Assembly: GCA_016196885.1 (NCBI GenBank)
Contig: JACPWU010000035.1
Coordinates: 1,328 to 33,327 of the forward strand
DNA length: 32,000 nucleotides
Direction: 5' to 3'
Source of the DNA: Chlamydiota bacterium
Lineage (GTDB): Bacteria > Auribacterota > JACPWU01
The position numbers and the translations under genes were made by a program. The notes beneath the pieces are model-generated. The model saw nothing but the letters and a program-made list of their open reading frames with translations. It made no database searches and had not been told where the DNA came from. Below, one piece after another: positions 1,014-15,616 of this stretch. The number at the start of each line of letters is the position of its first letter. Position 1 is the stretch's first letter.

Positions 1014-1094
1014 AAAAATAGTTTTTAGTTCTTAGTTTTGAGTTTTGAGTTTTGAGTTTTGAGTTTTTAGAACTTATAACTTAAAACTATTTTT
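1014..1094. repeat. Heptad hairpin H1 between convergent genes
   Basis: Seven tandem 7-mers lie at 1019-1067 (TAGTTTT TAGTTCT TAGTTTT GAGTTTT x4). Three complementary-sense 7-mers follow at 1068-1088 (TAGAACT TATAACT TAAAACT). The element is clamped by AAAAATAG (1014-1021) and CTATTTTT (1087-1094). It sits between the stop of 179-1012 (+) and the stop of 1093-2340 (-), so it may act as a bidirectional terminator. Confidence 0.8.
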
Positions 1095-2340
1095 AGTACC
1101 ACCCATGATGATCTTCCTGCGTCCCGGGGGTGGGTAAGGATTCTACCCCGGGCCACTCGAGATTTTTGGGAAATTGAACGGCCTTCGTCCCTCCCCCTAA
1201 GGCATCCGGCCTGCTAATTCTAAAGCTATTTTCAATTTGGAAAAGCAAGGTTTTCAGTTCATCCCATCTTTCAATCGAGGCATATCTTAACGTCATCACC
1301 CCGGAAAAACTATTTCCCTGAGAGACCAGGGCCCCTCTTAAAATACCGTGCTTACGCCCAGTGGAAAGATGATCGAATAAAACCTCTCGCTCGATCACCT
1401 TCCAACGCTGGCCCAAGCGGTCAATAAACTCGTCATATTCATGTTCAGATAAAATTTCGACATGGTTGACGGCCGCGGGATCTTGGTCAAAAAGTTTCAG
1501 AAATTCCTGCGGGGTGGGATTACCCGGAAGATAAATAAAAAAATTCACCAGAAAACTATTGAATTCGTCTTCCGAGGTCACCTCGATCGAGTAACGACTT
1601 TCCTTCACCCGCCAACCTTGAGGATATGAAACTTGAAAAACCTGCCCCTCGAATAAATGAAGGGAATCACTTTGAAAAGATTCGAAGCTGTCCCGAGAAC
1701 TTTCCAAGGTCATTTCCAAAGACGGCCATTCATCCAAAGGCGCCCAAATCGCCTCGTAAAAACTGGAATACCCTCTTTGAACCGCACGCACCTTCCCTGT
1801 CACAGGAATTCCAAAAATGGAGCCGGACAACACGGCCTCTATCTCTTCAGGTCTTTCCTTCACCTCTTCCAAAGTCAAATTTGGAAATTGTTTTTTCAGA
1901 ATTTCTTTTTGAATCTCAAATTGGGATTGAAGTAAATCACGCAACGTGCCAGAGGCCTTGCGAATGGGACAAATCAAAACGCAGGCCGTGCGCATCGCCT
2001 CCCGATACACCCAAACGCGGCCCGGTTCAATGTCCAATTTCCAATTTTCGGGAACGCGAAGAGAAAATCCCAAATAGGGCTGCCTAAAAATCCTCATGGG
2101 AAGGACGGAGGCCTTTAGAGGCATGGGTAGTGGAGGATGTTGAGGCAAAACCTCAGGCTGCGCAACCAGGACAGGCTTCGGGGATTCCTTCGCTTCATGA
2201 CGTCGAGGCTCAAGAGAATGCTGAGGAGAAGAAAGGATCAAAATAACCATGCACAAAAAGAAAGACACCCCCAGCCCCGCTGCCATCCTTTGCCCTCTCG
2301 TCCAAGACCTCATTTGAGAAAAAGGAGATAAATGTCTCAT
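1093..2340 (-). CDS. Membrane-anchored protein with two PsbP/DUF1795-like modules (paralog A of the family)
   Basis: The ORF track gives 1093-2457. The first 39 codons run across the divergent promoter and the start of the next gene. I prefer the ATG at 2338-2340 (MRHLSPF...), which lies just before the single TM helix AAGLGVSFFLCMVILILSS. It is a full-length paralog of 6477-7961 (LGFSLRVPENWKL/LGFSIRIPEMWHL; FQVSYPQGWRVKES/FQVYYPDGWQVSET; IYLPGNPTPQEF/IYLPGNPDPFQF; SFSGVM; ERW). Confidence 0.7.
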   Translation of the reverse strand: MRHLSPFSQMRSWTRGQRMAAGLGVSFFLCMVILILSSPQHSLEPRRHEAKESPKPVLVAQPEVLPQHPPLPMPLKASVLPMRIFRQPYLGFSLRVPENWKLDIEPGRVWVYREAMRTACVLICPIRKASGTLRDLLQSQFEIQKEILKKQFPNLTLEEVKERPEEIEAVLSGSIFGIPVTGKVRAVQRGYSSFYEAIWAPLDEWPSLEMTLESSRDSFESFQSDSLHLFEGQVFQVSYPQGWRVKESRYSIEVTSEDEFNSFLVNFFIYLPGNPTPQEFLKLFDQDPAAVNHVEILSEHEYDEFIDRLGQRWKVIEREVLFDHLSTGRKHGILRGALVSQGNSFSGVMTLRYASIERWDELKTLLFQIENSFRISRPDALGGGTKAVQFPKNLEWPGVESLPTPGTQEDHHGWY

Positions 2341-2344
2341 TTTT

Positions 2345-2373
2345 TTGCGAACCCTTGAAAAATGTTCTATAAT
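2345..2373 (+). promoter_or_regulatory. Candidate sigma70-type promoter for the 2411-6183 three-gene cluster
   Basis: TTGCGA (2345-2350), a 17-nt spacer, then a perfect TATAAT (2368-2373). An AAAAGGGAG Shine-Dalgarno lies at about 2395-2403 and the ATG is at 2411. Confidence 0.5.
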
Positions 2374-2410
2374 GAATATATCACTTAAACCTAGAAAAGG
2401 GAGCCATCCG

Positions 2411-13456: not shown

Positions 13457-13546
13457 GGCTGAAGCCCCCCCGGTGCCCCCTCAGTCCGTTTACGCCAAAT
13501 ATATCAACGCTCGTTTACCAGGACCATTATATGATAAAATAGGATT

Positions 13547-13753
13547 ATGAGAAACCTGAAAAAATTAAAGTCTGATACAATGGAAGACACGCTTGCCCTT
13601 TCTCCCCAAGAAAGGGTTCGGCTGGCAGAATCCCTTTATCAGGAAATAGTACACATTCAAAAGAAACGCTTTAAACCCTTCGTTAAATCCTTCTCGAGTT
13701 TTGAAGAATATGAAAAATGGAAGGCCCGACAAAAGGATCCTTGGCTATGGTGA
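13547..13753 (+). CDS. Small helical protein, putative antitoxin-like partner ('addiction module component'-like LSPxER.xLAExL motif)
   Basis: 68-aa ORF. LALSPQERVRLAESLYQEI resembles the N-terminal motif of CHP02574/Unstab_antitox-type antitoxins. Its stop overlaps the downstream start (ATGGTGA at 13747-13753). Confidence 0.4.
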   Translation: MRNLKKLKSDTMEDTLALSPQERVRLAESLYQEIVHIQKKRFKPFVKSFSSFEEYEKWKARQKDPWLW

Positions 13754-14208
13754 AGTCTAGTTTGGCACGGGTATGTGCCCTTTTAAATCGTTATCGAGTT
13801 CGATACTTGGTGATCGGAGCCCAGGCAGGGATTCTCTATGGCCTTGTGAGAAGCACGCATGATATTGATATTTTCCTTTTGAAGACAGCCGCCAATATTC
13901 AGAAAGCCCTCACAGCCCTTTCCTATTTGCCTCTGCAAATTGCAAAGGAATTAGACGCCGACGAAGTCTTAAAAAAACCGATTACCATTGTCGGAGACCA
14001 GCCTCGTGTGGACCTTTTAACCGCCCTCAGACAAGTTCAGTTTCACGATGCATGGAAGAAGAAAAAAGTGGTGAAGATTGACGGCATCCAAATCCCTCAC
14101 TTGTCTTTAGAGGATCTCATCATTAGCAAAGACACAGACCGCCTTCAAGACCAGGCGGACTATGAAAAATTGATACGACTTAGAGAATCCTTTAAAAATG
14201 TGATATAA
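13747..14208 (+). CDS. Minimal nucleotidyltransferase-fold protein (MNT/DUF6036-like), copy 1
   Basis: The ORF track starts at 13717. The ATG at 13747 overlaps the upstream stop. YLVIGAQAGILYGLVRSTHDIDIFL fits the NTase hG[GS]...D.D motif. The C-terminal IPHLSLEDLIISKDTDRLQDQADYEKL is typical of this small NTase family. It is a paralog of 29252-29722. Confidence 0.55.
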   Translation: MVKSSLARVCALLNRYRVRYLVIGAQAGILYGLVRSTHDIDIFLLKTAANIQKALTALSYLPLQIAKELDADEVLKKPITIVGDQPRVDLLTALRQVQFHDAWKKKKVVKIDGIQIPHLSLEDLIISKDTDRLQDQADYEKLIRLRESFKNVI

Positions 14209-14239
14209 TATCTCTTGTAAGACAAAAGGATCTGCCTCT

Positions 14240-15616
14240 ATGAGAATGACAAAAATGATCGGCAGTTTCGTTTGTTTCACCTTTCTTCTATCCTCCTTGT
14301 CTCTTCTGGCAGAGTATGTTCCTGTAAATTCTTTCAATGATCCTCAAGGGCGCTTCAGCTTACAGTTGGGCCCCCATTGGCTGATGCTTCCCATGCAGGC
14401 CCAAGGCGAGCTTGGCCATTACGCCTATGCCCAAAATGGGATTGTGGCGGCAGAGCTCAGCATTGCCTCTGAGACTTTGCCCATGATGCTCACGGCCGCT
14501 CAATACGCACAAGCAGTCGAAGAAAATACGCTGAAAAGTCTCCCTCAATATCAAAAAATTCAGGCCGGTCCTTTTAATTTGTCTGGGCTTGAGGGTTATT
14601 ATTATCAATTCAGCATGCTGAAGGACACCCAGATGGGGTCCCAGCCCATGATCGCCGAACAATATTTTTGGACGACAGGAACGACAGGATTCATGATTAC
14701 ATTCATGGTGCTCACCCCACAGGCCCATGCGCTTAAGCCCGCGCTCGATCAGGTGATTCAAAGCCTGCAATGGGGAGGCGCCACACAAATGCCCATGCAA
14801 AATCCTCAGAATCCTCAAACGATGGACCTGAATGCGCTCTATCAACAATACCAGCAGCAACAGCAGCAAATGATGCAGCAATACATGCAGATGTATGCAC
14901 AACAGAATCCAAACATGACAAACAATCCTTATGGGCAAAACACGATGCCGTCAGGAGACCTGAGCGCGCTTGTTCAACAACAAATGCAATTGGCCCAGTT
15001 GAAACCGCCCAGTGTGCCTATGAATCCTCAAAACCAAATGCTCATGAATCCGCAAAATATTCAGAGCTACCCTACCGTCAATTCGGGCAATGTACAAGCT
15101 CCTGTGACGGCTAACAACCCTTTTCTTTCTCCCTCTCAAAACGCACCCTCGACCCCAAATGTCTATGCACCCCTTCAAACTCCGGCCCCTCCAAATCAGG
15201 GAAATGAGATTTCACTTCAAAGCTACGAGGACCCTCAAGGCCGATTCTCGATTTTGATTCCTCAAGGTTTTACACCCTTCCCCTCCCCCGCAGTCACATT
15301 TCAAGGACCCCAAGGGGAAGTGCTTAACATTGCAGAAGTTCCAGGCATGACGGATGAATTGATAAACACCGTGCTCGCAGGAAAGGAAATTCAAGCGAAG
15401 GAAGAAATTCAAGTCCGCTCAGGCACTCAAAATGTTGCCGCCACAAAAGTTCTTTTCATGGCAAAAAATCCTCAAACGGGACAATCCTTTGTCACCGCCG
15501 CTCTTTTCATTAAAGAGAAAAATATTTTCCTCAGCTTCACAGTTCCTCAAAATTTATCAGAGCAAGAAAGGAATATGATGCAAAAGGTCCTAGCCAGTTT
15601 TGAAATGAAGGGGTAA
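14240..15616 (+). CDS. Secreted protein P4: two PsbP/DUF1795-like modules joined by a ~140-aa Q/N/M/P-rich linker
   Basis: An AAAGGA RBS lies 9 nt upstream. The signal peptide is ...FTFLLSSLSLLA|EY. The N-module is FNDPQGRFSLQLGPHWLML... and the C-module is YEDPQGRFSILIPQGFTPF... The linker includes YQQYQQQQQQMMQQYMQMYAQQNPNMTNNPYGQN. Confidence 0.75.
   Translation: MRMTKMIGSFVCFTFLLSSLSLLAEYVPVNSFNDPQGRFSLQLGPHWLMLPMQAQGELGHYAYAQNGIVAAELSIASETLPMMLTAAQYAQAVEENTLKSLPQYQKIQAGPFNLSGLEGYYYQFSMLKDTQMGSQPMIAEQYFWTTGTTGFMITFMVLTPQAHALKPALDQVIQSLQWGGATQMPMQNPQNPQTMDLNALYQQYQQQQQQMMQQYMQMYAQQNPNMTNNPYGQNTMPSGDLSALVQQQMQLAQLKPPSVPMNPQNQMLMNPQNIQSYPTVNSGNVQAPVTANNPFLSPSQNAPSTPNVYAPLQTPAPPNQGNEISLQSYEDPQGRFSILIPQGFTPFPSPAVTFQGPQGEVLNIAEVPGMTDELINTVLAGKEIQAKEEIQVRSGTQNVAATKVLFMAKNPQTGQSFVTAALFIKEKNIFLSFTVPQNLSEQERNMMQKVLASFEMKG

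Follow-up and report, generated by a model that had tools for sequence, protein, structure and literature searches.

A conserved cluster of six paralogous genes for predicted envelope proteins with PsbP-superfamily modules in an uncultured Chlamydiae lineage

Introduction

PsbP and CyanoP dock on the lumenal face of photosystem II (PSII), and LpqN, a protein with the same fold, works with MmpL transporters. PDB entry 6e5d places LpqN in cell-envelope biogenesis by its title, and DcrB has been described as a membrane-anchored periplasmic member of the Mog1p/PsbP superfamily, from a group associated with membrane-anchored complexes (PMC7716261). Here we analyze six genes, labelled A to F in coordinate order, that encode modules of this superfamily in a 32,000-nt stretch of a groundwater Chlamydiae metagenome-assembled genome (MAG; GCA_016196885.1, contig JACPWU010000035.1, positions 1,328 to 33,327 of the forward strand). 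We refer to this whole stretch as the window, and mark with a prime the orthologs of the six genes in a second, sister MAG. A preliminary description of the window had read the genes as a family of PsbP/CyanoP/DUF1795 (Mog1-PsbP-like) fold organized around a sensor-kinase operon. The fold assignment turns out to be right at the superfamily level, by sub-threshold Pfam matches, transitive profiles, AlphaFold2 models and Foldseek, whereas the proposed organization does not hold: in the sister MAG the six genes are contiguous, with no kinase in the 21 kb inspected, and the neighborhoods of distant relatives are unrelated.

The closest comparison is with CyanoP and PsbP (PF01789; 2xb3, 2vu4 and 1v2b), which provide the best structural match of the D and E models and the best Pfam match of all six proteins. 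The six resemble them as predicted exported proteins and, possibly, as non-enzymatic docking modules, but differ in their scores below the family cut-off, the lack of PSII context, the tandem modules, the long linkers and the transmembrane (TM)-anchored forms. PsbP_2 and DcrB (6e8a) have the N-terminal F..x.P.GW strand motif in common with the six, as well as the periplasmic location predicted for these, and the best E-values among relatives retrieved with our module profile were 3e-35 for PsbP_2 and 3e-14 for DcrB; unlike the six proteins, which have no lipobox Cys, DcrB is a single-module lipoprotein. The mycobacterial proteins LpqN, MTC28 and Apa (6e5d, 4pws/4ol4 and 5zx9) are likewise exported and match the fold (E-values 2e-6 to 7e-5), and MTC28 and Apa also carry Pro-rich low-complexity segments; however, these are single-module proteins of another phylum, and the sequence link consists of five of 135 scanned relatives that match Lpp-LpqN. 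Finally, Tli4/TplEi, Tsi3 and Eag/SciW share the fold, and Tli4 also has two tandem modules, but its two-domain superposition is poor (root-mean-square deviation (rmsd) >16 A) and no effector or type VI secretion system (T6SS) context is present here, while Eag proteins, unlike ours, are cytoplasmic and lack a signal peptide.

Six genes with eleven related modules

All six open reading frames (ORFs) of the preliminary description are present as it gave them, and an independent gene caller run on the source contig returned the same genes, apart from a C start placed 12 nt further upstream. Their layout is as follows (↓, predicted cleavage site).

Gene A, 1093-2340, minus strand, 415 aa: short cytoplasmic N-terminus, predicted TM anchor at aa 19-37, Pro-rich spacer, two PsbP-like modules (module 1, nt 1672-2103; module 2, nt 1207-1662), short tail
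Gene B, 2411-3529, plus strand, 372 aa: predicted signal peptide (AFA↓Q), a single PsbP-like module (nt 2519-2974), 184-aa tail
Gene C, 3663-5087 (alternative start 3651), plus strand, 474 aa: predicted signal peptide (PFA↓Q), two PsbP-like modules (N-module, nt 3750-4208; C-module, nt 4662-5084), 151-aa linker
Gene D, 5092-6183, plus strand, 363 aa: predicted signal peptide (IFA↓Q), two PsbP-like modules (N-module, nt 5164-5619; C-module, nt 5788-6180), 56-aa P/T-rich linker
Gene E, 6477-7961, minus strand, 494 aa, GTG start: cytoplasmic motif, predicted TM anchor at aa 20-38, spacer, two modules (module 1, nt 7203-7637; module 2, nt 6738-7193), 86-aa C-terminal tail (nt 6477-6737)
Gene F, 14240-15616, plus strand, 458 aa: predicted signal peptide (LLA↓E), two PsbP-like modules (N-module, nt 14324-14779; C-module, nt 15212-15613), 144-aa Q/N/P/M-rich linker

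The start of D lies 4 nt past the stop of C. Together the genes hold 11 homologous modules of ~150 aa, one in B and two in each of the others, and no further copy was found elsewhere in the window. By BLASTP, A and E share 37.5% identity across 333 aa (E-value 5e-68). The N-modules join B, C, D and F (B and D, 42% identity, 1e-40; B and F, 4e-18; D and F, 2e-15; C and D, 4e-12), and the C-modules join C, D and F (D and F, 3e-12; C and D, 7e-5). Between the A/E pair and B/C/D/F there was no BLAST link, and only a weak one by shallow profiles made from the window and the sister genome; profiles of this kind matched the two A/E modules to each other (hhalign 93.6% over 124 columns). A deep family profile, built from domains retrieved by an exhaustive HMMER search, matched A/E module 1 (hhalign 96.4%, 137 columns), A/E module 2 (95.7%, 125 columns) and the C-modules of C, D and F (98.3%, 129 columns), and, used as a hidden Markov model, it aligned over the whole module length to the D C-module (7e-11) and the first modules of A' and E' (~1e-5). 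It is because this profile links both the A/E modules and the C-modules that we count 11 homologous modules.

The exhaustive HMMER profile search returned 228 representatives at E-value ≤1e-3 among 1.84 billion proteins. With a family this rare, six members within 15 kb are not due to chance, and chance similarity was rejected. The same module in six genes, as first proposed, is thus borne out by BLASTP and by deep-profile hhalign, and the start motif and F(K/E/R)x ending described for it are seen, loosely, in every module.

Fold assignment

Pfam PsbP (PF01789) matched all six proteins with E-values of 1.3e-4 to 0.075 and 13.5-22.5 bits, below the gathering threshold of 23.5; the values by gene included 0.075 for A, 0.026 for B (aa 39-186, the full module), 1.3e-4 for C (22.5 bits, the best), 1e-3 for D and 1.8e-3 for F. 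Pfam DcrB (PF08786, formerly DUF1795) matched D (1.7e-3, 18.9 bits) and F (1.5e-4, 22.3 bits), below its gathering threshold of 27.2, and none of the six reached an E-value ≤1 on PsbP_2 (PF18933). The relatives add strong transitive evidence: when 135 of the 228, which had been retrieved with the N-module profile, were scanned in turn, 62 matched PsbP, 46 PsbP_2, 43 DcrB and five Lpp-LpqN. The sequence-profile evidence for the superfamily is therefore indirect but consistent.

The structural models point the same way. The AlphaFold2 model of mature D had a predicted local distance difference test (pLDDT) score of 76 (mostly 80-94 in the domains and <50 in the linker), and both of its modules run through five strands, a helix, four strands and a helix. 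Its top Foldseek match in the PDB was CyanoP 2xb3 (E-value 3e-8, target TM-score (TMt) 0.79, rmsd 3.0). There were 45 matches at E-value ≤1e-3, and the other top matches were spinach PsbP, MTC28, LpqN, Jonesia 3lyd, PA94, EagT6, Mog1, Apa, DcrB, Tsi3, SciW and Tli4/TplEi. The model of E residues 108-425 repeats the element order of D and has the same top match (2xb3, E-value 7e-7, TMt 0.64), although it is a low-confidence model (pLDDT 61.5, from a three-sequence alignment). For both models the top matches were exclusively proteins of the Mog1p/PsbP fold, and all four modelled modules show the α-β-α sandwich of that superfamily, an antiparallel sheet flanked by helices. The modules are thus members of the Mog1p/PsbP superfamily, with PsbP, PsbP_2 and DcrB as the nearest Pfam families, while the cut-offs for formal membership of PF01789 or PF08786 are not reached. 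Both checks that the preliminary description had proposed for the fold came out in its favor, the profile search with sub-threshold PsbP matches in six proteins and DcrB matches in two, and the structure search with CyanoP 2xb3 on top for D and E.

Three more specific identities were considered and rejected. A true PSII PsbP or CyanoP conflicts with the NCBIfam result, in which PSII_PsbP was the only model matched, at 16-20.6 bits against an equivalog cut-off of 60, and with the non-photosynthetic Chlamydiae MAG and the absence of PSII context in the window. A DcrB lipoprotein conflicts with the D and F scores on PF08786 and with the absence of a [LVI][ASTVI][GAS]C lipobox. A T6SS Eag chaperone conflicts with the predicted signal peptide or TM anchor in all six proteins and with the absence from the window of any Rhs/PAAR effector with N-terminal TM domains.

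Conservation of the cluster

The only other genome found with the close family is that of the sister Chlamydiae MAG, GCA_016196915.1 (locus L003), in which GreA and an M48-like peptidase are followed by ←A' B'→ C'→ D'→ ←E' F'→, all six contiguous. The orthology is one-to-one, with identities of 46.5% for A, 60% for B, 39% for C, 49% for D, 54% for E and 42% for F, and this conserved order and one-to-one orthology at 39-60% indicate that the paralogs are old and individually maintained. C and D are also neighbors in a third lineage, represented by a 2.5-kb Logan contig (L005). With D, E and the N-module alignment as queries, word-index homolog searches yielded nothing beyond the proteins themselves, the sister orthologs and one fragment, and pattern-based locus searches in GTDB genomes and JGI metagenomes found no relatives.

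The peptidase is a cluster neighbor in both genomes. In the sister MAG, the ortholog, 66% identical, adjoins A' across a MazE gene; in the window, the gene is the following.

179-1012, plus strand: predicted exported M48-like zinc peptidase, with the HEWAHE motif, a predicted signal peptide (SSA↓Q) and a Pfam Peptidase_M48 match (E-value 3.8e-5)

In these two genomes, the conserved unit is the six-gene paralog cluster together with the adjoining exported M48-like peptidase.

This pattern bears on the idea that the cluster is a periplasmic immunity array of the Tsi3 or Tli4/TplEi type, directed against the peptidoglycan- or lipid-targeting effectors of competitors. Tandem arrays of paralogs, such as this cluster, are typical of orphan immunity islands, and the Foldseek matches included Tsi3 (3wa5, 4luq) and the two-domain Tli4/TplEi (5h7z, 4r1d). 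However, orthologs kept one-to-one and in fixed order at 40-60% sequence difference are unlike an island of fast turnover, and neither the long conserved linkers nor the TM-anchored forms resemble known immunity proteins. The Tli4 alignments had an rmsd of 17-22 A, no effector, Rhs/PAAR or secretion-system gene lies nearby, and neither an adjoining cognate effector nor a variable immunity island, as expected for T6SS immunity, was found. PADLOC gave no match either, its library covering anti-phage systems only. We consider an immunity array very improbable.

Export, anchoring and linkers

Signal peptides and TM anchors were assigned by inspecting hydropathy together with positions -3 and -1. 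In B (AFA↓Q), C (PFA↓Q), D (IFA↓Q) and F (LLA↓E), a short charged n-region and a hydrophobic h-region precede a small residue at -1, and C has Pro at -3 of its putative site. In A and E, the N-terminus is basic and is followed by a single strong hydrophobic segment that resembles a TM anchor (A, aa 19-37, Kyte-Doolittle 19-residue mean (KD19) 2.41; E, aa 20-38, 2.14). Inspection of hydropathy and patterns revealed no second TM segment or lipobox in the six. These features fit Sec-type signal peptides in B, C, D and F and N-in single-pass anchors in A and E, with the modules predicted to face the periplasm or envelope. The predicted topology agrees with the earlier account of four signal peptides, three of them with A↓Q sites, and two TM anchors, as does the distribution of modules, with one in one exported protein, two in the other three and two in each anchored protein.

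The anchored proteins share more than the anchor. In A, E, A' and E', a cytoplasmic motif, FSQ[IVM]R.W.L.[EQ]K, directly precedes the TM segment (2227-2340 and 7848-7961, both minus strand), and A', E and E' share a periplasmic ELPDG..IP motif after it. The C-terminal tail of E (residues 409-494) is 69% identical to that of E', which makes it the best-conserved part of the protein, above either module; it contains HPADTSSVMESWEAK and, further on, the pattern YMQGGGYR.S.KTG..VWVTPQDYDP.RGGY.NP.DP. The tail of A is short (37 aa) and unlike it.

Among the soluble proteins, the linkers differ in kind, with the K/E-rich, P/T-rich and Q/N/M-rich compositions first described, to which we add the P/Q/T/N-rich tail of B. 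This 184-aa tail is only 9% identical to that of B' (module, 60%), and the 56-aa D linker (P 25%, T 21%) is 30% identical to its ortholog. The 151-aa C linker, of mixed P/E/L/K composition with a K/E-rich helical stretch and conserved motifs, is 40% identical to its ortholog against 44-46% for the modules, and the 144-aa F linker (Q 22%, P 15%, N 14%, M 9%), which has conserved helical Q-rich segments, is 53% identical to that of F' against 31% for the F C-module. In these two linkers (F, 14780-15211; C, 4209-4661), one example of a segment conserved between the genomes is LNALYQQYQQQQQQMMQQYMQMY compared with LNAMYEQFQKQQQQMMQQYMQQY. A Pfam scan of the E tail, C linker and F linker gave no match. 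This conservation suggests that the C and F linkers may be helical or self-associating elements and not passive spacers.

The low-complexity segments also raise the question of surface exposure, that is, whether the six could be secreted or surface adhesin- or antigen-like proteins for contact with a eukaryotic host, like mycobacterial Apa and MTC28. The organism is labelled Chlamydiae, which are host-associated bacteria; Foldseek matched MTC28 (4pws, E-value 2e-6) and the fibronectin-binding Apa (5zx9, 7e-5), whose fold is flanked by Pro-rich low complexity; and the linkers and tails here are P/T-, P/Q/N- and Q/N-rich. Nevertheless, two of the six are predicted to be anchored in the inner membrane, the window offers no evident route across the outer membrane, and PsbP, LpqN and DcrB match at least as well as Apa and MTC28 do. 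A role in host contact seems improbable to us.

As a separate observation, Gln occupies position +1 in eight of the 11 putative signal peptidase I sites of the two MAG loci (SSA↓Q, AFA↓Q, IFA↓Q, ALS↓Q and IFG↓Q among them; 179-1012, 2411-3529, 3663-5087 and 5092-6183 in the window, and 4843-5727, 7564-8340, 10001-11104 and 12881-14470 in L003). The pattern extends to the M48-like peptidase pair, which is unrelated to the PsbP-like family, although the sample is tiny and dominated by one paralog family. It resembles the 'Q-rule' of Bacteroidetes, and no glutaminyl cyclase gene was found in the window. In Chlamydiae, Q-values are typically <20% (Bochtler et al. 2018, PMC5837995).

The kinase block

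In the window, E and F are separated by a 6.2-kb block (7958-14208), which does not belong to the conserved cluster and consists of the following genes.

7958-9097, minus strand: receiver-histidine kinase (REC-HK), by Pfam and NCBIfam
9121-12078, minus strand: hybrid histidine kinase (HHK) with two TM segments and a weakly V4R-like N-domain
12041-13456, minus strand: gene resembling acyl-ACP reductase (AAR) and PigE-N (E-values 7e-43 and 7e-24, both far below the equivalog cut-offs)
13547-13753, plus strand: 68-aa ORF overlapping the start of the nucleotidyltransferase gene
13717/13747-14208, plus strand: DUF6036/DUF2204 nucleotidyltransferase, by Pfam and NCBIfam

Along the minus strand the order is AAR-like gene, HHK and REC-HK, then E. 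The preliminary description had E translationally coupled to REC-HK by an ATGA overlap; the overlap is there, but it reads GTGA (...GCG TTG TGA AAA AG..., a GTG start over a TGA stop), with AGGAG ~10 nt upstream. Given this overlap and the AGGAG, co-transcription of the AAR-like, HHK, REC-HK and E genes is likely in this genome.

This arrangement raises the possibility of kinase-coupled envelope sensing, in which E, possibly along with A, would serve as an accessory sensor anchored by its TM segment, the periplasmic modules detecting an envelope cue that is passed to the HHK through TM or juxtamembrane contacts. The place of E as the last gene of the putative operon fits such a role, as do the two TM segments of the HHK, which are joined by a ~7-aa loop and leave essentially no periplasmic loop; two-TM kinases with short loops typically need an accessory membrane protein. 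The cytoplasmic motif that A, E and their orthologs share beside the TM segment and the fusion of one distant relative to a Ser/Thr kinase domain also point in this direction. However, the block is missing from the sister MAG, where E' and F' lie 145 bp apart and E' thus has its own 145-bp upstream region; tblastn found no homolog of the HHK, REC-HK, AAR-like or nucleotidyltransferase genes in the 21 kb inspected around that cluster, and both the cluster and the cytoplasmic motif persist there in the absence of kinases. Elsewhere, no kinase recurs as a neighbor, the nearest case being an unrelated GAF-domain histidine kinase 2 kb away in one of five distant contexts, so the linkage with kinases, which the preliminary description had proposed to check in related genomes, is seen in this genome only, and the conserved linkage expected of an accessory sensor was not found across the two close genomes. 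An accessory-sensor role of this kind is, in our view, unlikely. Of the two genomes, either this one gained the block through a lineage-specific insertion or rearrangement, or the sister lost it, and the kinase coupling of E is at most local and not a conserved property of the family.

The block itself has two further features. The predicted HHK has a 215-aa cytoplasmic N-domain (V4R, E-value 0.004), the two TM segments, HisKA-HATPase, a receiver domain and a second HATPase. Its gene follows, and may overlap, the AAR/PigE-N-like gene, and the two may form a small-molecule sensing unit, perhaps for an aldehyde or lipid. At the block edge, the 68-aa ORF and the nucleotidyltransferase gene resemble a toxin-antitoxin pair, and the sister locus has MazE and PemK nearby instead.

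Wider family and remaining genes of the window

The distant relatives (E-values 1e-55 to 1e-15) are mostly single genes in unrelated surroundings, as seen in five contexts with amidase, CHAT-TPR protein, RND efflux and metallo-beta-lactamase-fold genes as neighbors; a second family member lies 4 kb away in one of them. Among the best 150 relatives, an N-terminal hydrophobic segment is present in 127 of the 148 that include a start residue, 43 of the 150 have two to six near-full tandem modules, and rare fusions join the module to TPR, trypsin-like protease or Ser/Thr kinase domains. An exported multi-module architecture is thus typical in this branch of the superfamily, and the locus is unusual in that its amplification is spread over six separately conserved genes. 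On the contig of one distant relative (L007), we noted a zinc-ribbon (DZR)-containing protein with one PsbP-like module (4495-5727, plus strand) and a 1033-aa TPR-CHAT protein (6843-9944, plus strand) directly upstream of a two-module family member. No account of PsbP-like proteins in Chlamydiae came up in a literature search.

The remainder of the window consists of housekeeping genes, among them nnr (YjeF), acpS, pdxJ, glmM, ybbR, cdaA, folP, ftsH, recR, dnaX and dus, and the order of cdaA (DAC domain), ybbR and glmM at 18414-21616 (minus strand) is the conserved arrangement of the cyclic di-AMP synthase operon. Promoter and terminator scans did no better than shuffled sequences (21 against 17.5±4.6 and 20 against 18.3±4.4, respectively).

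Discussion

We propose that this locus, a product of ancient duplication, is a lineage-specific cluster of genes for envelope docking or scaffold proteins built from PsbP-superfamily modules in an uncultured Chlamydiae lineage, a reading that we judge slightly better than an even bet. Its parts differ in strength. The identity and topology of the six proteins we hold with high confidence, whereas the scaffold or adaptor role, argued by analogy, is tentative and falls somewhat short of even.

By analogy with PsbP/CyanoP, the inner-membrane protein DcrB and LpqN, the modules would not be enzymes but would act as protein-docking or adaptor domains on the periplasmic face of membrane complexes. 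The anchored proteins A and E would tether such contacts to the inner membrane, and the soluble B, C, D and F could serve as bivalent bridges, connecting partners through two modules joined by a linker. The C linker, F linker and E tail, being as conserved as the modules or more so, would probably carry binding motifs of their own, and the kinase block would give E at most a local, secondary regulatory link.

Several points weigh against this proposal. The fold from which the role is argued has members that do many different things. All Pfam matches of the six proteins lie under the gathering thresholds, and the module profile, searched against PDB sequences, returned only a chance WW-domain match (E-value 0.65). 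The E model is of low confidence, and the signal peptides and anchors were assigned by hydropathy only. Given its overlap with REC-HK, E may have a signalling role in this genome. The close family comprises two genomes and one 2.5-kb fragment, so that conservation of the cluster is a matter of two genomes, and the neighborhood statistics rest on two MAGs, one short contig and five distant-relative contexts.

A more elaborate version of the docking and scaffold proposal, which is speculative and quite improbable in our estimate, would make the six proteins one lineage-specific envelope apparatus. In it, the anchored A and E, with the cytoplasmic motif and, in E, the conserved C-terminal peptide, would combine with four soluble two-module bridges that self-associate via conserved Q/N- or K/E-rich linkers, forming a periplasmic scaffold or matrix that could be plugged into an intramembrane-sensing hybrid kinase, as in this genome.

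To conclude, what is new in this work is a set of members, and a conserved paralog cluster, of a known superfamily that is widespread and has been catalogued before. In practical terms, the main gain is in annotation, whereby "hypothetical proteins" become exported PsbP-superfamily proteins. The cluster provides a clean, checkable case of the PsbP/DcrB fold outside photosynthesis, with anchored forms and with linkers that are conserved like domains, and its partners, if identified, could help to explain what bacterial PsbP_2/DcrB-like proteins, whose roles are poorly understood, do in the envelope.

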